15,144 bases of DNA from the UHGV virus genome UHGV-2113352; one strand, 5' to 3'. Positions 1 to 15,028 of this stretch are shown in pieces. The translations under genes were made by a program, and so were the position numbers. How positions within the stretch are numbered: position 1 is the stretch's first letter; every line of letters begins with the position of its first letter. Under the pieces are notes generated by a model. It was given only the letters and a program-made list of their open reading frames with translations, did no database searches and was not told where the DNA came from. The stretch comes from a virus.

Positions 1-202
1 GCTTACCGCTCATGGGCACCTCTCTTTAAGTCATCTTAAATGACTCTGAGGTGTCTGTTAAACCTGTGGCGATTCATCCCAGATGAACGCTACCAACTTC
101 GACAAGAAAAAACATTGCCTATCTTAGCAAAGTTCAAAGCTTGGCTCGATTCTGTATTCCAACTTATTGATTACAACTAAAAACTGAATGACAATCTGAA
201 AA

Positions 203-694
203 TTAAAGAAAAATATTCATAGCCAAGAATCCGACACCTCCAGCCAACACCAAGATACCTAAAACAACTATGGTTCGTAGCCCGCTTATCGATCTTTGCT
301 GAGACTCCGCCGCCGCCTCTAACTTGCTTTTCAATTCCGCTAATTGTTTAGCAATGCGGCTATCACTTGCTGTGCAGCCTTGTTCAAACTGCTCAGGTGT
401 TACAAACTTCAAGGCTGCAACCTCACGCCTTAGTTTCAACTGTTCATCTTTGATCTGGCCTAGAAGATCATTTAGTGACATAAGGCGACCGTCAAACTCT
501 TCAAATTTATTCGAGTTCTTCGTAAACAATTCAGCGTGTTCATAAGCTAGATTTACGAGCGTTGATTTCGCAGCCTCTATCTCAGTTCTTGCATCGCTGA
601 CGGCGCTCAACAGGCCATTAAACTGTGCCACTTGCGTCGATTGCTCTTCGAGTGAATCGATTACCCGGTGTAGTTTCTGTATGTCATTCACCAA
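203..694 (-). CDS. Small coiled-coil protein with C-terminal transmembrane anchor; third gene of the candidate defence operon
   Basis: 163-aa ORF. Charged, Leu-rich, heptad-like central region followed by a hydrophobic C-terminal segment (TIVVLGILVLAGGVGFLAMNIFL). Its start (TTG 692-694 or GTG 689-691) overlaps the stop of the upstream giant gene (TGA 688-690). A Shine-Dalgarno-like AAGGGG lies on the minus strand at about 700-705. No family recognised. Confidence 0.6.
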   Translation of the reverse strand: MVNDIQKLHRVIDSLEEQSTQVAQFNGLLSAVSDARTEIEAAKSTLVNLAYEHAELFTKNSNKFEEFDGRLMSLNDLLGQIKDEQLKLRREVAALKFVTPEQFEQGCTASDSRIAKQLAELKSKLEAAAESQQRSISGLRTIVVLGILVLAGGVGFLAMNIFL

Positions 695-3600
695 TTAATC
701 CCCTTGTATAGGCTGGTAAGTTTTTCAAGTCTAATTGCCAGTGGAGCTAACAAAGTGTGATAGGAGAACGGATCTCCTAGCTCTTCATTTACTTCCCCAA
801 GAAAATCCAAATCTTCAAATTTCTCATGGACCAAACGAGCAAAGCGACTTCGCGCATTTTCAGAAAATATTGGTTTTAACTGCATAGTTTTTCGGACCAG
901 CTCTAGTGCTTCATCCCTATTATCACTGATCAACCGATCAAATGACGATGCCATTCTTCGCTCTCCATCTGCATCATCAAACTCATCGGAAGCTAGTCGC
1001 AGCACACCACTCAAGTAGTTCAAGAATGCATTATCTTTGTATGACTCTAGGAATCGAGAAATCTGACCTCGTAGGATCGTCATCTTCTCGCTGCTTACTA
1101 AATGTTCCGAGCCCTCTTCTTCATCAGTTTCAAAAAAAACTGATGGCCATAACCTCACCGACACAGAATTCTCAGCCATATTGAGCAAAAGTTGGCTCGA
1201 CTTGTCGTGTCTGAAATAACCCTCTAACTTCTCCTTAAATTCTTTACCATCCATCCTGCCTTCAGCAAATAAACTACAGTGTTCATAAACATTCTTCTGT
1301 GACTGGCGGCGGTTGTAGACAAAATGGTCATAGGACCAAAGTAAAAGAACAAGAAAGATAAATTGCGATTTATCGATAGACCCTTTTCTCAGCTTGTCGC
1401 AGAGAATTTTGTAGTACTGGTTATCACTACTGAACACATCAGCGAGCTTAAACTCAGGATCATACTTTCTGACGGTATGCTCAATTTTCTTTTCCAGGCC
1501 TTCTTCCGATAGGCACTGGAACTCGACAGAGAGCGTTCCATTAAAAAAGTCTTCGATTACCCAGTCAGAGACAATACCTAATTGAGAAAGGCGGTAGATA
1601 GCCTTTTCCAATTTAAACTTTTCCGTACCAAACTGCCTGGCAGTAATGGTCACCGTGTTGTGTTCCTGATTGTACTTAAAAAATTCGTATACATTTGCCA
1701 TCAACTTGAACTCATCATTGATTGTGTCCAAGCCGTTTGTCATCAGGAATAGATTTGTGTTCAGGTCGCTATCGCGACTCAATGACTTCACGTACTCCTT
1801 CAGATCTTTGACGTTCGTGCTAGCGTCCCAAATCTTGTCGAGAATAGCTGAATTGGGCTCTTTTGTGAGAAGCACATAGCAATCTGCGGGTACTTCCTTG
1901 AATAGTTTTTTATCTCGCCCTGCCCTGCCAGCTTCCTGATACAAGGCCTCCATCGACCCAGGTATTCCGAAGTGAACCGTATAGGCAATATTTCCCTTAT
2001 TCACGCCCATTCCGAATGCCTTAGTGGCAGTAAGTAGGCGGTATTTATTTTCTTTAAAATCGTCTTGAACTTGGCGCTTATATCTATCGAAAGCCTCTCC
2101 CTGCAATCCACCCATTTTCGGAGCCGACCCCGAAAAATATCTAACATCCATCTTCAAGAGTGTTGATATTCGGCCCGCTAAGCTATAACACCCCTTAGCT
2201 CCGTTGACGGTAGAAGTGAATATGATCCCCGCCTTATTGCCGTCTTCCCCATCTGAATTCCATTTACCCTCCATTTCAGAAACAAGCTCGACGACTGCAT
2301 CACCTTTACGGCCTTTATCGTCAATGACGTGGAATGATAGTTCCTCGCGAGTGAAGTCCATGGGGGTACGGACAAAATCATCTGGGATATCAAACTCTGT
2401 TTGAATATCCTTTAGGACGTTAACTGATGCTGTTGCCGTTAGACCTATATAACTCGCACTGGGAGCAAACCGTTCGATTGTATTTGCCAGGTTCAGATAA
2501 GAAGTCCTGAAATCATGTCCCCACTCAGACAAACAGTGAGCTTCATCGATCACCGCGTAGGCAAATGAGAGATCTAGTCCGATAGCCAACATCTCTTTTC
2601 TAAACGCATGGGTTTGGAATCGCTCAGGCGATATAAAAACGAAGAAGTACTTACCACGTCCGAAATCTCTCTGAACTTTGGCCTTCTCTCCTGCCTTCAA
2701 ATCACTTGTAATAAAATTGCTTCGAGTGAAGCCGATGCTATCCAAATCTGCTTTCTGGTCATACATCAAACTTTTTATCGGGCACACGACAAAGCTAACG
2801 GCTGGTTGCAGGACCGCAGACAGCTGGTAACAAATCGACTTACCCGAACCTGTAGGCAGCAATCCTATTGTGCCGTTTTTCGAAAGTGCAGATCCTATGA
2901 TACCAACCTGCCCTTCCCTGAAATCTACATCCTCTAGGTATGGTAGAAACAGGTTGCTGAGGAAGTATCTCAGCGACTCTCTCTGCTCGCTGCCTGGGCT
3001 AAGATCTAGCTTGTAGGTAATGGGGTTACTACATGAAAGCTCGAAAAAGTCATAGTCAATCAATTGACTGGTTTCTATTGAAACAGCATCAGAATCTTCG
3101 AAGTTTCGATAGAAATCGAAGTAATCCGTACGTGAATATATGACGTCTTGGTTAACTTGAAAGGAATCGTCATAACGCTCCAGTAAGCTGAAGTCGATGA
3201 ATATATTTTCACCAGACCGTTCGCTCGGAAGCTCATCTGATTCGATCAGCGCAACCTCAATTCGCTTTTCTTCAATGCCGATGAGACGAAAGATATTCGA
3301 TAACAAATCGTTCAGGTCGTCCAGTGCCGCTTCAGCAAAATCAGTTCCATCACGATTGACTATGAATAGTTTTTTCAACTCCCCTAGTCTGATCTGACCG
3401 CGTTCAAGAAGCTCTAATAACAGTATCTGGAAACGCAACGCCGAGGTCAGCCTCAATCGCGAGTCAGTAACATCGACTCCATTTTCATAAGCCTCTTGGT
3501 AATTCAATAAAGAAATACCATTAGGAGGCGTTAGGACACCATTTCGCTCTAGACTATCAACGAGCTGAATTTGAGAAATAATCGAATTTATCTTACTGAT

Positions 3601-5364
3601 AAATGACTGATTCTCAGATGCCACTTCTCGAACAGTGAAACGAACTGTCTTCAGTCCCAAGGTTTCAGTAAACGCATCCCTCATCTCATCTAAATGCTGA
3701 GAATTTTGGTGCTGTTGACCATCTATCTCAATAATTAAACCAACTTGAGGAATGTAAAAATCTACCTGTCGGTTCTGGAATTGTTCAACGTAGACCTGAG
3801 TCATATCGTAAATCTGAACTTCAGGGAGCATTAGTTGTTTTACAAAAATGTACTCACCGAAATACTTTGGAATCAGCTCATCAAAAAACCTTTTCGCTGG
3901 GTAGTACCCAGAATGCTTGTTGCCTCGAATCAATCTATTCCAAAAAACTGGCTTATCTGACACAAGAGCCTGAGCTGATGTATTAAGACCGCTCTTCTCC
4001 AGTTCAATGCCAAATGCCTTCCTCAGTTTCCGCGAGGCTATTGTTGGCTTCCCTCTCTGAAGCATATTCTTAAGAACTTGAATTGCTGCAAATAGCTGTC
4101 CAGACGCCGCTTCAGACGAGATAGAATACTGGAGAAGATTGTGGAAAATGAAGTTATGGTTGGTTCTCGCGTAGTTAGCAGAAAACTTCTTGCTTACAAG
4201 CCTGCTACTAGACTTCGACCTGACATGTCTAGATAGTTCACTTTCGTCCGCCAGCGAGTCGATGATTGGGTTGTACAAATCTGAAAACAGTTGGTTATTG
4301 TGTTGTTGTTCTTGGCTGTCAGTGCCTAGCTCCAATCTATAGAGAGTTTTAACCAACGTAAAAATGTAAATACTTGAATTCGGAAAAGCTTGAGATAGAC
4401 AGCGTGTTATCTCATCAGTTGTAGCCCCCGAAGTTAATACGTCGTCAATGATCAGAAATGTCGGATTTGAATTAGCTTCTATTGAATCAAAATCGGCTTT
4501 ATAGGCACCTCTGACCTGGTGGAGTCTTTGTGCTGCAGTGCAATTAGTCGATTTATCTAATACGTGATCTTTCTCTAATATCTTAGGTTGGTAAGAAGCC
4601 CCTAAAGCAACAGCCAGCGATTTGCCCAAGGTATCTAATGCTTTATCGTCATCTTCAGCCCTAAGCTCAGCGTGACCTAACGCTCGAACAACTATATCTA
4701 TGGCTGGGAATGAAGGAGCTAGCTCAACAGTCTTGTTAACCCAGCGGCGAACAGAAGTATTCTTGTTATCCTTGAAAGACCAAACTTCCTGTTTGATACC
4801 ATCTAAATAGAATCCCAGATGAAGTTTATTCCCAGATTGTATTAACTCAGAACGTCCAGTTCTTGCGGAGCTCCGCGTCGAGTTTTTTCCAATAAGCTCG
4901 GAGAGACTGCTTATTCCCTTATGTGACGAATCGATCTCCGAGGCAGAACCCCAATCTACTGAGAAAAACTCAACTCCTGCATTGGAAGCAGCGTCTCGAT
5001 CTAGGTTACTATCTCCTAAATAAATTGACTCGTCGGCGCTAACACCGAAGTACTCGAGAATACGAGTAACGCCCTCAGGGCTCGGCTTATGCTGCGTTAC
5101 ATCATGGTAGGCTACTACATAATCAACAGTGATACTGAAGTGTTTGAGTAGCCCCTGAACGTAGTTCGAAGGCGCATTCGAGAAGATAGCAACCTTGATT
5201 CCAACCGACCGAGCCGTTGTAACAAGGCCGACAACGTCCTGATTGATGACACAACCATTAAAGTACCTGGGTATGTCTCTCCATCGGCCAGCTGACCGAA
5301 GTGGTTCGAGGCTTGATGTATCAATAAGCGTGTCATCAAGATCGAGGACGATGACCTTTATCAC
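688..5364 (-). CDS. Giant multidomain protein: N-terminal HAD-type phosphatase, phosphoribosyltransferase (PRTase), DUF559 (Vsr-like) endonuclease-like domain, RecQ-like SF2 helicase, and an unassigned ~400-aa C-terminal region
   Basis: 1558-aa uninterrupted ORF. HAD motif I LDLDDTL (aa 7-13) and motif IV GDSNLD (aa 117-122), nt about 4945-5364. PRTase PRPP-binding motif FLIIDDVLTSGATT (aa 303-316, nt 4417-4458). DUF559-type motif VDFYIPQVGLIIEIDGQQH followed by ..RD..L..G..RF (aa 534-577, nt about 3565-3957). RecQ-type helicase motifs: Walker A LPTGSGKS (aa 836-843, nt 2836-2859, checked against DNA), VIDEAHCLSEWGHDFR (aa 938-953, checked), LTATA (aa 975-979), YQEAGRAGRD (aa 1142-1151). GTG start at 5362-5364 overlaps the TGA stop of the upstream DprA-like gene (GTGA); SD-like AAGGTGG sits 6 nt upstream. 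Confidence 0.85.
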   Translation of the reverse strand: MIKVIVLDLDDTLIDTSSLEPLRSAGRWRDIPRYFNGCVINQDVVGLVTTARSVGIKVAIFSNAPSNYVQGLLKHFSITVDYVVAYHDVTQHKPSPEGVTRILEYFGVSADESIYLGDSNLDRDAASNAGVEFFSVDWGSASEIDSSHKGISSLSELIGKNSTRSSARTGRSELIQSGNKLHLGFYLDGIKQEVWSFKDNKNTSVRRWVNKTVELAPSFPAIDIVVRALGHAELRAEDDDKALDTLGKSLAVALGASYQPKILEKDHVLDKSTNCTAAQRLHQVRGAYKADFDSIEANSNPTFLIIDDVLTSGATTDEITRCLSQAFPNSSIYIFTLVKTLYRLELGTDSQEQQHNNQLFSDLYNPIIDSLADESELSRHVRSKSSSRLVSKKFSANYARTNHNFIFHNLLQYSISSEAASGQLFAAIQVLKNMLQRGKPTIASRKLRKAFGIELEKSGLNTSAQALVSDKPVFWNRLIRGNKHSGYYPAKRFFDELIPKYFGEYIFVKQLMLPEVQIYDMTQVYVEQFQNRQVDFYIPQVGLIIEIDGQQHQNSQHLDEMRDAFTETLGLKTVRFTVREVASENQSFISKINSIISQIQLVDSLERNGVLTPPNGISLLNYQEAYENGVDVTDSRLRLTSALRFQILLLELLERGQIRLGELKKLFIVNRDGTDFAEAALDDLNDLLSNIFRLIGIEEKRIEVALIESDELPSERSGENIFIDFSLLERYDDSFQVNQDVIYSRTDYFDFYRNFEDSDAVSIETSQLIDYDFFELSCSNPITYKLDLSPGSEQRESLRYFLSNLFLPYLEDVDFREGQVGIIGSALSKNGTIGLLPTGSGKSICYQLSAVLQPAVSFVVCPIKSLMYDQKADLDSIGFTRSNFITSDLKAGEKAKVQRDFGRGKYFFVFISPERFQTHAFRKEMLAIGLDLSFAYAVIDEAHCLSEWGHDFRTSYLNLANTIERFAPSASYIGLTATASVNVLKDIQTEFDIPDDFVRTPMDFTREELSFHVIDDKGRKGDAVVELVSEMEGKWNSDGEDGNKAGIIFTSTVNGAKGCYSLAGRISTLLKMDVRYFSGSAPKMGGLQGEAFDRYKRQVQDDFKENKYRLLTATKAFGMGVNKGNIAYTVHFGIPGSMEALYQEAGRAGRDKKLFKEVPADCYVLLTKEPNSAILDKIWDASTNVKDLKEYVKSLSRDSDLNTNLFLMTNGLDTINDEFKLMANVYEFFKYNQEHNTVTITARQFGTEKFKLEKAIYRLSQLGIVSDWVIEDFFNGTLSVEFQCLSEEGLEKKIEHTVRKYDPEFKLADVFSSDNQYYKILCDKLRKGSIDKSQFIFLVLLLWSYDHFVYNRRQSQKNVYEHCSLFAEGRMDGKEFKEKLEGYFRHDKSSQLLLNMAENSVSVRLWPSVFFETDEEEGSEHLVSSEKMTILRGQISRFLESYKDNAFLNYLSGVLRLASDEFDDADGERRMASSFDRLISDNRDEALELVRKTMQLKPIFSENARSRFARLVHEKFEDLDFLGEVNEELGDPFSYHTLLAPLAIRLEKLTSLYKGINW

Positions 5365-6347
5365 AGCAGGCCACCTTTTGCTTTCAATGACCCAAATGAA
5401 CTCGCGATATCTTCTAATTGAAGACGAATATCTTCATAAGATTCGCTCGTGTATGGTATCGCCCTCCCTTCGTTAACTAGCTGTTGAGTTCCTGAAATTG
5501 CCTTGATAGTAAGATCTGGATACTTAGCTTTATGTACGTCAGGAACGAAGACAGGACGCATCATAGAGATAGCAGATTTGACTGCGTGCATCGTCCCACC
5601 ATCTATCGAAGTTTCAATAGCAAAGACGGCAGTAGATAAACCTGCTTGTATCCTGTCTCGCTTAGCAAAGAACGCAGGTATTGCTTTGGTTCCTGGTGCA
5701 TTCTCTGCAACTAGAAGTCCGCCCTCGTCCAATATTTCCTTAGCGAGTTCCCGATTACTTGCGGGAGAAATAGACTCCACATCGACAAGAACAGAAATCG
5801 TTGGTGTTTTGGCATCTAATGCCGCGCGATGAGCAATTGTATCGATACCCAGTGCAAGTCCACTGACTATCGTGAAGCCATAAGTCGCAAACTTTTGAAT
5901 AGTTTTAATCGTTAGGGTTTCACCCTTGGGGGTATTTTCACGAGTTCCTACAACAGCTAATGAAAGCCTATTCTCTAAGAGATTTAGATTGCCTTTACAG
6001 TAAAGAAAGGGTGGAGGTTTTGGGAGATCATATAACGAAATTGGATAGTTTTTCGAACCGAAGATAACAATCTCAACTCCTTTATTTTTGAACGAATCAA
6101 TCTCTGTTTTTACTTCGTCCCTGAGAGCCTGGAAGTTCGCAGCGTCGAAGAAACTTTCGAGAGTTGCTCGAGATTTACCATTTGAGATTTTCAGATTGGA
6201 GGAGTTACGTACCAGTTCTTCGAGTGTTGACACTCCGCTGTACGCTGAAAACTTTAAGATTGACAGAACAGTTTCATCACCAACGCTCATTAACTTCTTG
6301 AGAACAAGAGCATCTACAATGTTCACTTCTCCCCCAAAGAACGACAA
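5361..6347 (-). CDS. DprA/Smf-like (SLOG superfamily) Rossmann-fold protein; first gene of the candidate defence operon
   Basis: 328-aa ORF. The central region (LAVVGTRENTPKGE..IVSGLALGIDTIAHRAAL..TISVLV..GGLLVAENAPGT..FFAKRDRIQAGLS..VFAIETSIDGGTMHAV) follows the conserved pattern of the DprA Rossmann domain (GxR.., SGLAxGID..AH..AL, FxxRNRiIaGLS, ..SG). The first start on the track is TTG at 6345-6347; the true start may be the downstream GTG (codon 8) or ATG (codon 20). Confidence 0.75.
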   Translation of the reverse strand: MSFFGGEVNIVDALVLKKLMSVGDETVLSILKFSAYSGVSTLEELVRNSSNLKISNGKSRATLESFFDAANFQALRDEVKTEIDSFKNKGVEIVIFGSKNYPISLYDLPKPPPFLYCKGNLNLLENRLSLAVVGTRENTPKGETLTIKTIQKFATYGFTIVSGLALGIDTIAHRAALDAKTPTISVLVDVESISPASNRELAKEILDEGGLLVAENAPGTKAIPAFFAKRDRIQAGLSTAVFAIETSIDGGTMHAVKSAISMMRPVFVPDVHKAKYPDLTIKAISGTQQLVNEGRAIPYTSESYEDIRLQLEDIASSFGSLKAKGGLL

Positions 6348-6460
6348 TTTTTAGTCCATTTACCATGCAGATTAATTGTATTCGACCAAGAACACAACAC
6401 AAACAAATATAGAATCGCCACGGATAATTTAGACACTTCCGAGCCGTTGATAATACTGGT

Positions 6461-7672
6461 TCAAACTAATGCAGCTATGCCTTTTACCTTGCTTAAAAGT
6501 TCAAGCTGTCGTGAATAAGGTTTTGCGCAATAGTAGGCTTTGATAATCTGCCCCGGTGTCGCATCGCCGGGGTCGAGTCCTTCCTCGCCCAAACACGCTA
6601 CTTTGACATTAAGACCGATACTGGTCAGTCGCCTGGCTGCGGCCATCGTGTTGCGTATAGCTTGCTTTTCACTATCCCACATCATAATCACATTACGTAA
6701 TCCACGCGCCTTGAGCGTCAGGAACGCGCCCAACTGATCTTCTGCATCCTGAGTGGTGTTACCAGATAGATGCATCCCGAACGTTCCTATCGGTTCCACG
6801 TAATCGCGTAATGTTTCTTCATCAAAAATAGCTCGTTTAACCCCCATAACATCGAACGCCCCCTCACAGACAACTACAGTCTGTTTGCCGACTGCATTGT
6901 GGCCGTTGTAGAGAAATTTACCCGATGCTGGCAGCTGCATGGGGAACAGATACCGGCGTTCTGCTGCACCGGTAATGTCACGACCCTGGAAGGTCTTCAT
7001 CACGCCATCCAGATCGTAAACCGGTATCAGTATTCGCATATCGAATACCTGTCCTTTGACCTGGTCTGTGTACGGATCGACGTATGCGTGCTTGCCTTCG
7101 ACGCAGTAACGCAGATCAAAGTATTTGGCCAGCTCCGGGGAAATCTGGCGCTCCACCAGATAATCAGGAAGACGACCGTCAATGGGGAGTTCGTAATGGC
7201 GCGGGAGAGCTACCGGTCCTTCCAGTTCAACCTTGCTGGCCAGTACGATCTCTTCCTTCTTCGGTGCCCATCCTTGTGAGATCAGCGCGTTCTGGACGTA
7301 CTCTTCAAAATCGCGACGAGATTTGCCGCTGTAATGCTTTAGGAAGACCAGCTTGTTGAACTGAATCTTTTCGGGATGATCACCTGCAAAGCATTTGCCG
7401 ACACCACTGGTCAGGTTGAAATAAACCTTCCAGTTTGAGCTGCCGCATACCGGACACTCTTTAATGTTGACCTCTCGTCCGCGAGTACTGACTCCACCAC
7501 GACGGTAGATGATCCCTTCCATATCGAGCCATTGCTCAAAATCCAGCTCGGTCAGTAATTCTTTCAAGTCGCTCACGTTCTTACCCCTATTTTTTGCAGG
7601 TAATATCTTGATAAGCCTCGGTATTTGAATATCATAAAGGCTCATGTGTTTTTTCTTTTGTGGTTTTGGCAA
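6461..7672 (-). CDS. DNA primase, phage T4 gp61-like (zinc ribbon plus TOPRIM)
   Basis: 403-aa ORF. Zinc-ribbon motif CPVCGSSNWKV..C..DH; the stretch ILIPVYDLDGVMKTFQGRDI..VVVCEGAFDVMGV resembles the T4 gp61 primase core (..IPIYN..G....FQGRAL..VYVLEGPIDSLF) as I remember it. Lies directly downstream of the helicase gene, as gene 61 follows gene 41 in T4. The track start is TTG 7670-7672; an in-frame ATG at 7643-7645 (MSLYDIQ..) is a plausible alternative start. Confidence 0.7.
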   Translation of the reverse strand: MPKPQKKKHMSLYDIQIPRLIKILPAKNRGKNVSDLKELLTELDFEQWLDMEGIIYRRGGVSTRGREVNIKECPVCGSSNWKVYFNLTSGVGKCFAGDHPEKIQFNKLVFLKHYSGKSRRDFEEYVQNALISQGWAPKKEEIVLASKVELEGPVALPRHYELPIDGRLPDYLVERQISPELAKYFDLRYCVEGKHAYVDPYTDQVKGQVFDMRILIPVYDLDGVMKTFQGRDITGAAERRYLFPMQLPASGKFLYNGHNAVGKQTVVVCEGAFDVMGVKRAIFDEETLRDYVEPIGTFGMHLSGNTTQDAEDQLGAFLTLKARGLRNVIMMWDSEKQAIRNTMAAARRLTSIGLNVKVACLGEEGLDPGDATPGQIIKAYYCAKPYSRQLELLSKVKGIAALV

Positions 7673-10159: not shown

Positions 10160-10897
10160 TTGGATAAGGCTAAATACTATGTTTACTGTCTCTATGATAC
10201 AGAAGACAAGATGAAAAGACCGTTTTACATAGGAAAAGGCAAATCGACTCGTTGTCTCGATCACATCAAGTATCCCGATGACTCTCCCAAATCCATGCGG
10301 ATCAAAGAACTTTTGGCTAATAAAAAATTAGGCATAGATATTCTTCGTCATGGTATGGATGAAACCACAGCCAAACTTGTTGAGGCGACATGCATCGACC
10401 TTATGGGGGTCGGAGAGCTTACGAATAAGGTACGAGGAAGTGGTTCCATGATGGGCAGAATATCACTGGACGCCTACCATCACTTAGTGCTGCAAGAGGA
10501 AACTGAAATTGCTCCTGAGCACGCCGGTCTTGCCTTCCTGCTAAACAGCACCTACAAGTCAGGAATGTCCGCTCTGGCATTATATGAAGCTACGCGTGGC
10601 GTATGGGCAAAGGTTCCAAGAGACGAGAATCTCAAATATGCCTACGCTACATATGGGGGCCTGATAATGGAAGTTTATCAGATTGAATGCTGGGTCAAAG
10701 CCGGTTCTCAGCAGTACTTTACAAGGGATATAGCTCTTGGCCCCGACACAAAACGTTATGAATTTGTTGGCAGAATAGCCGATGAGCATATTAGAAAACT
10801 GTATGTAGGCAAATTAATCAAGAAGCCACCAAGCTACGGCAGCCCTTTTGTGAAGGTTGGGGTGGTTAGGAATGAACATAGTGTTAGCGCGGCATAA
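10160..10897 (+). CDS. Hypothetical protein with an N-terminal GIY-YIG-like nuclease motif
   Basis: 245-aa ORF, the only long plus-strand gene in this region and divergent from the replication operon. N-terminus YYVYCLYD..KRPFYIGKGKSTRCLDH fits the GIY-(10-11)-YIG-..R..H pattern of GIY-YIG nucleases. The C-terminal ~150 aa is unassigned. Confidence 0.4.
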   Translation: MDKAKYYVYCLYDTEDKMKRPFYIGKGKSTRCLDHIKYPDDSPKSMRIKELLANKKLGIDILRHGMDETTAKLVEATCIDLMGVGELTNKVRGSGSMMGRISLDAYHHLVLQEETEIAPEHAGLAFLLNSTYKSGMSALALYEATRGVWAKVPRDENLKYAYATYGGLIMEVYQIECWVKAGSQQYFTRDIALGPDTKRYEFVGRIADEHIRKLYVGKLIKKPPSYGSPFVKVGVVRNEHSVSAA

Positions 10898-12296: not shown

Positions 12297-12566
12297 ATGT
12301 CCGCACTGAAAAAGCAGCGCATCGATTTGAGATTAACCGATGACGATAAAAGCATCATCGAGGAAGCTGCCGCAATGTCTAACCAGAGCATTACCCAGTT
12401 CATGGTTAGCAGTGCATCCGAACGTGCCGTGAAGGTGATAGAGCAACACCGTAGACTGGTTCTAAGTGAAGAGTCCTGGAATCTGGTTATGGATGCTATA
12501 AGCAATCCTCCGGCACCGAACGACAAGCTGAAACGAGCTGCCAATCGTCTGAAAAGCATGGAGTAA
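12297..12566 (+). CDS. DUF1778 (RHH-type) antitoxin of a GNAT toxin-antitoxin pair (TacA/AtaR-like)
   Basis: 89-aa ORF MSALKKQRIDLRLTDDDKSIIEEAAA..SNPPAPNDKLKRAANRLKSME closely matches the TacA/AtaR antitoxin family as I remember it. Sits 7 nt upstream of the GNAT toxin gene. AGGGGG SD before the ATG. Confidence 0.8.
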   Translation: MSALKKQRIDLRLTDDDKSIIEEAAAMSNQSITQFMVSSASERAVKVIEQHRRLVLSEESWNLVMDAISNPPAPNDKLKRAANRLKSME

Positions 12567-12573
12567 TTTACTC

Positions 12574-13095
12574 GTGAGCAATACGACGATCGAGATTTTC
12601 TCTGGAGAGAACGATTATGATCTAAACGGTTTTGATTGCGGCGAAGAGTCACTAAACGCATTTTTGACCAACCACTTAAAAAGACAGCATGAAGGAAAAA
12701 TTCTTCGCGCTTATGTGCTTTGCACTAAAGAAGAAATACCAAAGGTATTAGGTTATTACACTTTGTCAGGCAGCTGCTTTGAGAAAGAAACCTTACCTTC
12801 AAAGAGTCAGCAAAAGAAAGTGCCTTATCGGAATGTCCCAAGTATCACTTTAGGCAGACTGGCTTTGGACAAATCTCTTCAAGGTCAGGGGCTTGGCTCA
12901 ATGCTTGTAACTCACGCAATGCGTGTTGTGTACAATGCATCTCTTGCGGTAGGCATTCATGGGCTTTTCGTTGAGGCGTTGAACGATAAAGCCAGGGCGT
13001 TTTATAAAAGTTTGGGCTTTATCCAGCTGGTTGGTAACAACGATCGTTCTTTGTTCTATCCAACAAAATCTATCGAAAAATTGTTCGAAGAATAA
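12574..13095 (+). CDS. GNAT-family acetyltransferase toxin (TacT/AtaT-like, aminoacyl-tRNA acetylating)
   Basis: 173-aa ORF with GTG start. Acetyl-CoA binding motif QGQGLGSMLV; size and the upstream DUF1778 antitoxin are typical of TacAT/AtaRT/KacAT modules. Confidence 0.8.
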   Translation: MSNTTIEIFSGENDYDLNGFDCGEESLNAFLTNHLKRQHEGKILRAYVLCTKEEIPKVLGYYTLSGSCFEKETLPSKSQQKKVPYRNVPSITLGRLALDKSLQGQGLGSMLVTHAMRVVYNASLAVGIHGLFVEALNDKARAFYKSLGFIQLVGNNDRSLFYPTKSIEKLFEE

Positions 13096-14680: not shown

Positions 14681-15028
14681 TTACTCTGCTGGTATTGTTG
14701 GCCAGTCAATATCCGGTGCCGTTGATGTGTCAATGCGGTTCAATAAAACTCTATACTTCTTCCATGCAGTCAGCAACGATGCTTCTTCCTCCGTTGCAAT
14801 CTCCAAATCTACAGCATCCTGAAGTGGCGCAATGTGCTCGCTGGCTACCTGCATCAGACTTTTTTTTGTTTCTTCCGCTTCCCGTACCTGAAACAATTTT
14901 TCTGTTTCCTTATCCTTCTCCCAGGATGTGCCGTCCCACTTCTGATATTCCCCATCCGGTGATAACCAGGTGACATTTTCCGGTAATGGCCCAAGTTCAG
15001 AAATAAACAACGCGTCCCCTGATTCCAC
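14681..15028 (-). CDS. Tail fibre assembly protein (Tfa family), apparently lacking an N-terminal domain
   Basis: 115-aa ORF ending ..[32 protein letters not shown], the conserved C-terminal signature of enterobacterial phage Tfa proteins (TfaE, Mu U, P1 U type). The track start is GTG at 15026-15028. The same frame stays open upstream to a stop at 15128-15130 and encodes ..[11 protein letters not shown].., which looks like continued Tfa homology, with no ATG/GTG/TTG in between. Confidence 0.7.

Follow-up and report, generated by a model that had tools for sequence, protein, structure and literature searches.

A three-gene operon on the minus strand (positions 203–6347) of a 15,144-nucleotide stretch of UHGV virus genome UHGV-2113352 (hereafter, the window) encodes a DprA-like protein, a giant fusion protein of 1558 amino acids (aa) and a small tail-anchored protein. 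As judged from sequence comparisons, this operon is a merger of a ShosTA-type gene pair with an unnamed, autonomous two-gene helicase module. A defence function could be inferred for it: the operon is probably an anti-phage system of toxin–antitoxin (TA) type, of the ShosTA or PsyrTA (RqlHI) kind, built by the fusion of the two units.

ShosTA and PsyrTA (identical with RqlHI) are phage-protective TA systems, in which the toxin bears a phosphoribosyltransferase (PRTase) domain and the antitoxin is DprA-like (10.1101/2022.05.11.491447). Both were first identified as TA pairs, according to works cited in the same source. A reading of the window made from sequence only had pointed to an anti-phage pair of a DprA-like protein and a PRTase as kin of the operon. 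This pair is ShosTA, known from prophage and satellite hotspots (Rousset 2022, PMC9122126; Millman 2022, 10.1101/2022.05.11.491447).

Gene organisation and domain composition

The genes and predicted domains of the operon are as follows.

5361–6347 (−): ShosA-type DprA-like protein, putative antitoxin; 328 aa from TTG 6347, RefSeq homologues being also annotated from ATG 6290 (309 aa)
5466–6089 (−): Rossmann-type DprA core (aa 87–294), span of the Pfam match
688–5364 (−): 1558-aa fusion of a ShosT-like toxin part and a nuclease-helicase module; translated from GTG 5364 to the stop codon 688–690
4885–5364 (−): HAD-IA phosphatase/pyrophosphatase-like domain (aa 1–160); D8xD10xT12, K93, D118, D122
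4330–4842 (−): ComF/ShosT-type PRTase domain (aa ~175–345); phosphoribosyl pyrophosphate (PRPP) loop LIIDDVLTSGAT, D307/D308
4198–4329 (−): disordered linker of low model confidence, joining the ShosT-like part to the helicase module (aa ~346–389); predicted local distance difference test (pLDDT) below 50 for aa 372–416; short homologues align from aa ~390–392
3835–4197 (−): N-terminal part of the helicase module (aa ~390–510), conserved, no family; FSANYxxTNHNF and QRGKPT motifs
3562–3828 (−): DUF559 (Vsr/PD-(D/E)xK-like) endonuclease domain (aa 513–601); E546, D548, Q551, H552, D535, core residues invariant
1867–2940 (−): RecQ-like superfamily 2 (SF2) helicase core (aa ~809–1166); Walker A GSGKS with K842, DEAH D940/E941, motif VI Q1143–R1150 (R1147/R1150)
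1519–1722 (−): winged-helix domain (aa ~1215–1282)
691–1518 (−): all-helical TPR-like C-terminal domain, family-specific (aa ~1283–1558)
203–694 (−): small tail-anchored helical (coiled-coil-like) protein, 162–163 aa; conserved partner of the helicase module
218–274 (−): C-terminal transmembrane (TM) helix of the small protein (aa 141–159); hydrophobic 19-mer, mean Kyte-Doolittle 2.47

The coupling of three genes, noticed in the sequence-only reading, is confirmed by the coordinates of the co-directional open reading frames (ORFs; 328, 1558 and 163 aa) and by their overlaps. The DprA-like gene ends with ...CTG CTG TGA and contains the GTG start of the giant gene, which gives a 4-nt GTGA overlap (5361–5364) with AAGGTGG upstream. 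The giant gene ends with ...AAT TGG TGA, and the small gene starts from TTG (694) or GTG (691), with an overlap of 7 or 4 nt and AAGGGG upstream. In other phyla, the genes of homologous loci again overlap (−4 to −38 nt), so translational coupling is conserved and is no chance effect. All predicted domains were found with their catalytic residues conserved; in an alignment of 36 homologues at 41–68% identity, every catalytic motif is fully or almost fully invariant.

The first protein matches Pfam DNA_processg_A (PF02481) at 1.9e-53, and its description as a DprA-type protein stands. Its best PADLOC model (PADLOC results here are scans with the PADLOC hidden Markov models (HMMs) only) is ShosA, PDLC03961 (6.8e-68, profile positions 33–272 of 303), ahead of PsyrA (1.5e-28), and its top PDB sequence matches are the ShosA entries 8ZVA and 9VZO (6e-34). 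Canonical DprA, the transformation protein, was rejected, as TIGR00732 gave 159.7 bits against a cut-off of 191.15 and PRK10736 gave 130.6 against 495. In ShosA, R139 and R234 are required for single-stranded DNA (ssDNA) binding and for antitoxin activity (PMC12961424). These residues align to R136 and R230 of the protein described here, and R261 aligns to K257 (own mapping from the PDB alignment, with a 5-residue tag offset assumed). The protein is therefore regarded as a putative ShosA-type antitoxin.

The giant protein was predicted to combine four enzymatic modules (HAD, PRTase, DUF559 and RecQ-like helicase), and profile searches recover all of them. The HAD domain matches PF13419 at 3.6e-17. 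The PRTase is marginal in Pfam itself (PRTase_2, E 0.076), and other profiles and the motif agree on it: PADLOC ShosT (2e-8), GntX/ComF as the best NCBIfam PRTase match (2.8e-7) and, for aa 244–340, the PRTase part of PsyrT (profile 592–684 of 689, 5.6e-5). PF00156 is matched in homologues of the giant protein, and the DDxxTxGxT motif (D307, D308, T311, G313, T315) is invariant. In an AlphaFold2 model of aa 1–470 (pLDDT 80.7), the top three Foldseek matches in PDB are ShosT structures (8ZVC, 8ZVD and 8ZVB, ~2e-13 vs 1.7e-8 for the next); these alignments span both domains, with a global TM-score of just 0.26–0.30. A PDB sequence search with aa 1–472 returned generic HAD hydrolases only and no ShosT chain even at E ≤ 10, so the ShosT link rests on profile and fold evidence. 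Residues 1–350 form a ShosT-like HAD/pyrophosphatase-PRTase part, a putative toxin.

In the nuclease-helicase half, the region of aa ~390–510 contains the invariant residues Y398, N402, N404, F405, N409, N433, Q436, R437, G438 and P440 and is also present in short homologues. The DUF559 domain (PF04480, 1.4e-9; PvuRts1I-like_N, 3e-4; PADLOC mREase_II, 2.3e-9) resembles nuclease domains of modification-dependent restriction enzymes. The helicase core matches Pfam DEAD (2.3e-17), Helicase_C (9.2e-11) and RecQ in PDB (4e-41). Its residues 813–1153 match PADLOC PsyrT at 6.2e-61 (profile 20–337), and aa 469–1471 match the PADLOC model PDLC02868, labelled 'DpdF', at 7.7e-113. An NCBIfam RecQ-family subfamily model was passed (223.6 vs 219.8). 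Canonical RecQ was rejected: the equivalog TIGR01389 scored 240 against 640, HRDC was not matched, and the C-terminus consists of a winged helix and a family-specific helical repeat. As for the residue numbers given previously, K842, D307/D308, D8/D10 and E546/D548 are correct, but the DEAH box is at D940/E941 and not at D939/E940.

The same architecture is common to more than 100 clusters (at 90% identity) of 1540–1590 aa that share 41–68% identity. This constancy of length and composition indicates that the 1558-aa ORF is intact and that the fusion is real and conserved.

The two units and their relatives

The C-terminal 406 aa of the giant protein were searched against 1.84 billion representatives, with 314 matches, mostly of 1100–1300 aa. 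Proteins of ~1100–1300 aa, which align from aa ~390 to the end, far outnumber the fused form: among the best 150 of the 314 matches, the full-length representatives include ~75 of the short type and ~7 of fused length. DUF559, DEAD and Helicase_C are retained in all tested members of the helicase-module family. In the species-representative genomes, the fused form occurs in three only, all marine Oceanospirillales-type Gammaproteobacteria, and the short form in ~12, mostly Bacteroidota. Altogether the stand-alone module of helicase and membrane anchor comprises about 300 clusters at 50% identity.

The co-conservation of the three genes, expected for an operon of this kind, holds in every fused locus examined (L004/L013, L006, L009, L014, L015, L096 and L098), where they stand together with stop/start overlaps. 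In fused full-length homologues (41–68% identity), the DprA-like gene is always upstream and the small gene always downstream. No DprA or HAD-PRTase gene was found within 6 kb of the short loci. Since DprA accompanies the fused form only, it belongs to the ShosT-like part.

The small gene behaves differently. An HMM built from six homologues detected it in 15 distinct loci (1e-5 to 1e-58), each time directly after the helicase-module gene; L024 and L027 gave no match, yet a same-shaped tail-anchored ORF lies downstream. In 17 of the 18 distinct loci with downstream sequence, a protein of 156–211 aa that ends in a TM helix directly follows the helicase-module gene. As it does so with or without DprA and PRTase, the third gene is to be assigned to the helicase module. 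The protein matches no family in Pfam, NCBIfam or PADLOC and has a conserved N-terminal helix (DIxKLxxVIxxLEEQS), and the TM-equivalent segment stops 1–13 residues before the C-terminus in all homologues. Thus the membrane anchor claimed for it is upheld, while the coiled coil has a weak basis (weak matches to SMC-type coiled coils and helix-favouring composition only). The sequence-only reading likened its shape to that of abortive-infection effectors or sensors; it is the partner of the helicase module and not evidently such an effector of the ShosTA part. Likewise, the description of the operon as a much expanded relative of the DprA and PRTase pair masks the helicase half and third gene, which are autonomous and far commoner without DprA and PRTase.

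Stand-alone DUF559-helicase pairs (P0108–P0119, L005, L007 and L016–L023, matched by PDLC02868) align at full length with aa ~390–1558 and the third gene at 36–45% identity, the start/stop overlap included. They differ in the absence of DprA and HAD-PRTase and come chiefly from Bacteroidota and other phyla. A sequence-related SF2 helicase is DpdF, from the Dpd 7-deazaguanine DNA-modification/restriction island, and several PADLOC 'DpdF' models match the helicase region. Membership in Dpd was rejected, as NF041063 gave 139.4 bits against a cut-off of 550 and no dpd genes occur in the window or in L004–L009, L096 and L098.

In one subgroup of the helicase-module family (P0168, P0182, P0202 and P0273; ~1300 aa), an extra N-terminal region of ~170 residues has no Pfam match. 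This region may represent a further effector or sensor domain, joined on where the ShosT-like part sits in the giant protein.

ShosT consists of a hydrolase/pyrophosphatase domain (1–164) and a PRTase domain (165–424) (PMC11961720). It binds PRPP, acts as a pyrophosphatase and provokes replication stress; ShosA binds ssDNA and RecA (PMC11961720; PMC12961424). With ShosTA (E. coli APEC O1; PDB 8ZVA–8ZVD, 9VZO), the operon shares the antitoxin, which is closest in sequence to ShosA, and the order of an N-terminal HAD-like hydrolase/pyrophosphatase and a PRTase with the DD PRPP loop. However, ShosT is a stand-alone toxin of ~400–430 aa (~424 aa), whereas its counterpart here is the first ~350 residues of a 1558-aa chain, has only ~14% identity to the solved ShosT, and carries a canonical DxDxT HAD-IA domain. 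ShosTA has two genes; the operon includes a third conserved one, for the tail-anchored protein.

RqlH (690 aa) comprises a RecQ-like helicase followed by a C-terminal PRTase, which is needed for toxicity, and is counteracted by RqlI; helicase-dead mutants are more harmful, the helicase and PRTase domains being genetically coupled (PMC4670107). PRTase mutations abolish toxicity in the relatives, and the DprA-like partner neutralises it (PMC11961720, PMC12961424, PMC4670107, 10.1101/2022.05.11.491447). The operon resembles PsyrTA/RqlHI in that a RecQ-like SF2 helicase and a ComF-type PRTase share one polypeptide, with a DprA-like gene in the same operon. It differs in the N-terminal position of the PRTase, in a giant protein more than twice the size, in additional HAD, DUF559 and winged-helix/TPR-like domains and the membrane-protein gene, and in an antitoxin nearer to ShosA than to PsyrA. 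The inverted order, extra domains and ShosA-like antitoxin indicate that this PRTase-helicase fusion arose independently of RqlH.

In the literature consulted, which did not extend to most subscription journals, no paper describes the HAD-PRTase-DUF559-helicase order, the family-specific C-terminal domain, the third gene or the stand-alone two-gene module. The claim of a novel defence operon holds insofar as no paper names this exact three-gene system, and is to be narrowed to a new architecture within a known kind, since PsyrTA/RqlHI also join a helicase-PRTase fusion with a DprA-like antitoxin. Similarly, the full set of four modules and its order were not met in the literature, but HAD with PRTase is ShosT, and helicase, PRTase and DprA-like protein together are PsyrTA/RqlHI.

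The two units could also work independently. The helicase half would then be a stand-alone restriction-like nuclease-helicase that degrades foreign DNA, with the ShosT-like part and DprA as a passenger TA pair. This agrees with the completeness of the DUF559-helicase and small-protein module, commoner alone than fused, and with the restriction-enzyme likeness of DUF559. It is nevertheless quite improbable, because over 100 clusters, as distant as 41% identity, keep the in-frame fusion, DprA is inherited together with the fused form without exception, and the independent fusion RqlH shows genetic coupling of its domains (PMC4670107). Also, when the HAD-PRTase part was searched for close relatives outside the fusion, only contig-end or insertion sequence (IS)-cut fragments of the same fusion came up, and no 'split' four-gene ancestor was found in this search.

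Mobile-element context

The placement of the operon as cargo within a phage/plasmid backbone, proposed earlier, agrees with the SSU5-like gene order around it. The window shares 99.3% identity with pLAO18, a non-mobilisable IncFIB plasmid of E. coli, and matches Salmonella phage-plasmid SSU5 in the order of genes for DNA ligase, primase, DnaB-like helicase, ParA and tail-fibre assembly. Between the primase gene and the homologue of SSU5_042, SSU5 holds a different 321-aa gene (SSU5_041), so the operon occupies a variable position of the backbone. SSU5_041 (L012 3973–4938) matched no Pfam or PADLOC family; because it fills a variable slot, it too may be an accessory or defence gene, so far uncharacterised. 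Literature on SSU5 hotspots, again short of most subscription journals, yielded no description of this operon architecture. The GC content of the operon is 0.43, lower than 0.475 in the remainder of the window, and the block 78–6397 is flanked by both terminal inverted repeats of one IS3-family element, with tips towards the cargo:

1–77 (−): IS3-family terminal inverted repeat and orfA start; tip at 77 faces the cargo; the remnant runs ~440 bp further upstream in pLAO18
78–150 (+): IS66-family transposase gene remnant, carried along with the operon; weak Pfam DDE_Tnp_IS66 match, E 0.027
6405–6461 (+): second terminal inverted repeat of this IS3-family element; tip towards the cargo; cut short after ~57 bp, where the primase stop codon adjoins; aligned with the intact IS in L003

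The arms of the inverted repeat are 39–75 and 6412–6448. Both copies in the window are truncated, and an intact copy of the element is present in plasmid pNT1F10-102k (L003). The inward IS3-family ends around the 6.3-kb cargo suggest that the operon was brought in by a composite transposon, of which they are the remnants. The adjacent IS66 fragment (DDE_Tnp_IS66) is also called beside the operon in the Vibrio alginolyticus copy (L096 10542–10804). The block 78–6397 was considered as a cassette with fixed ends in every replicon, and this was rejected: homology of other copies extends ~40–120 bp beyond it, so the ends in the window are set by its own IS3 scars, with no intrinsic cassette boundary.

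At 97.5% identity, the block is found on Klebsiella and Raoultella plasmids and on three E. coli chromosomes, with type I restriction genes and numerous IS nearby. At 95–96% DNA identity, it is found in V. alginolyticus (L096/L097) between traN and ssb/bet/exo; the carrier reads, by its gene content, as an SXT/R391-like integrative and conjugative element (ICE). Copies in Marinobacterium weihaiense (L004) and V. alginolyticus have traU/traN or traG, of conjugative transfer, on one side and ssb/bet(RecT)/exo(YqaJ) on the other, as is typical of a variable hotspot of SXT/R391-type ICEs. Identity of 95–96% between Vibrio and enterobacterial DNA points to recent transfer from aquatic Gammaproteobacteria. 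The cassette would thus have moved from an SXT/R391-like marine ICE to plasmids and chromosomes of Enterobacteriaceae and further into the slot of an SSU5-like phage-plasmid, between IS3-family ends. The operon is dispensable cargo, because it is absent from SSU5 and most relatives of the phage-plasmid and present in only 7 of 5426 complete E. coli genomes.

The surroundings of further loci are those of mobile elements and defence islands, which, like the patchy distribution and the lower GC content, speaks for the anti-phage reading. Zorya, BrxR and nSTAND genes neighbour L006, a reverse transcriptase and SSB gene L009, and HipA and radical-SAM genes L098; type I restriction–modification (R-M) genes adjoin L011, L093 and L095. 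Loci of the short module have McrBC, Druantia DruH, WYL or Fic neighbours and no tra or competence genes.

The position of the ICE copies between tra genes and recombination genes, together with the membrane anchor of the third protein, would also suit a DNA-processing or recombination accessory of mobile elements: a ComFA/ComFC/DprA-like set handling incoming or transferred ssDNA at the membrane, for instance during establishment after conjugation or phage-plasmid entry. The ComFA, ComFC and DprA proteins are likewise an SF2 helicase, a ComF-type PRTase and DprA, functionally linked and acting on ssDNA at the membrane. The naming by NCBI of PRTase fragments of the giant protein as 'ComF family' and the best NCBIfam match to GntX/ComF point in the same direction, and the helicase-PRTase-DprA trio of RqlHI has been likened to competence proteins (PMC4670107, PMC5512222). 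However, the competence proteins are separate housekeeping proteins of naturally competent bacteria without toxin behaviour, whereas the operon is rare mobile cargo. Its dispensability, the failed dprA equivalog cut-off, the toxicity of RqlH and ShosT when unopposed and the neighbours of the short module all make this explanation very unlikely.

Damage to the operon is unevenly distributed. At least 6 of 18 copies (11 plasmid, 7 E. coli) have IS1/IS5 insertions or truncations in the giant gene (among them, in L094 p1585m1_B, L095 p21AR0133C and hits H20–H22, IS1B at ~codon 1110, IS5 at ~codon 1270 and three truncations), and the DprA-like gene is intact in all 18. Damage to the giant gene but never to DprA fits the asymmetry of a toxin and its antitoxin. 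It would also fit a system that serves mainly plasmid or ICE addiction (post-segregational killing), in which the carrier is stabilised by the PRTase toxin paired with a labile DprA-like antitoxin and phage defence is absent or incidental. The discovery of ShosTA and PsyrTA as TA pairs, the location of every copy on a plasmid, phage-plasmid, ICE or IS-rich island and the second TA pair (DUF1778/GNAT) in the same window speak for this possibility. Yet addiction leaves unexplained the conserved 1200-aa nuclease-helicase half and its membrane partner, which are also found without any TA pair; both characterised relatives protect against phages, and chromosomal copies adjoin R-M systems. Addiction as the main role is thus considered unlikely, although the roles in addiction and defence are compatible with each other.

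Further genes of the phage-plasmid were also noted. A 245-aa protein at 10160–10897 (+) matches PADLOC PD-T4-3, a single-gene defence system (1.9e-23), and contains a nuclease domain of the LEM-3-like GIY-YIG type (5.1e-7). The equivalent position of SSU5 is taken by a DUF2971 gene in the opposite orientation, which suggests that the phage-plasmid has another variable slot with defence genes here. A TacAT-type pair at ~12306–13095 (+), annotated in pLAO18, consists of a DUF1778 antitoxin and a GNAT acetyltransferase toxin (ORF 12574–13095) with a few-base overlap and is the second TA module of the same phage-plasmid. The Rfam scan detected no RNA family within or beside the operon; its sole match is IS009 (RF02111), full-length, at 14721–14919 (−), with 190.6 bits against a gathering score of 117, overlapping the 5' part of a tail-fibre-assembly-like ORF region.

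Proposed mode of action and its significance

As an anti-phage TA-type system, the operon could work as follows. Unit 1 would be the ShosTA pair, namely the DprA-like antitoxin, which would bind ssDNA and RecA, and the ShosT-like toxin (aa 1–350). Unit 2 would be the autonomous two-gene module of the DUF559-helicase-winged helix-helical repeat protein (aa ~390–1558) and its tail-anchored partner. The observed translational coupling could provide the three proteins in a fixed proportion. In uninfected cells, the DprA-like protein would neutralise the toxin by ssDNA binding and RecA recruitment, as suggested by ShosA. The nuclease-helicase half may sense or engage DNA, probably phage DNA or replication intermediates, and the tail-anchored partner might, speculatively, tether the complex to the inner membrane at the entry site of foreign DNA. 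The helicase half could gate the covalently attached PRTase, by analogy with RqlH, in which helicase mutations unleash PRTase-dependent toxicity. Experiments on ShosT and RqlH suggest that the released PRTase would use PRPP, with the HAD/pyrophosphatase domain pulling the reaction forward, and that its activity would lead to replication stress and DNA damage, halting both phage and cell.

Several points weigh against this interpretation. ShosA does not bind ShosT (type IV), but RqlI binds RqlH, so the toxin here might be neutralised either indirectly or by binding. What is proposed for the small membrane protein and for gating by the helicase is conjectural. The PADLOC ShosT match covers positions 110–215 of 237 in the profile, less than half, and an automated caller may miss 'Shosta'. 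The counts of IS disruptions are small, and several copies are not independent. A promoter and terminator scan of 1–6600 gave counts not above those of shuffled sequence, with no convincing site in 6348–6460.

A further proposal, possible though doubtful, concerns the stand-alone module. The DUF559-RecQ-like helicase and its tail-anchored protein might be an unnamed anti-phage system that acts at the membrane on incoming DNA, and the fused form might be a natural merger that wires a ShosT-type PRTase and its DprA-like antidote to this sensor. If this is true, the independent RqlH fusion included, PRTase toxins of this clade would act on or alongside DNA (phosphoribosylating bases or acting on unwound ssDNA), beyond upsetting the purine pool.

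Two questions on ShosTA and PsyrTA/RqlHI are touched by these results: the target of the PRTase, and the reason for an antidote of DprA-like type that binds ssDNA and RecA. The operon represents a second, independent fusion of a PRTase with a RecQ-like helicase, with a nuclease in addition, and could make a DNA-linked mechanism addressable in a single polypeptide. The survey also exposes a candidate two-gene system of a helicase and a membrane anchor, located beside McrBC, Druantia and Fic genes and without an assigned function.

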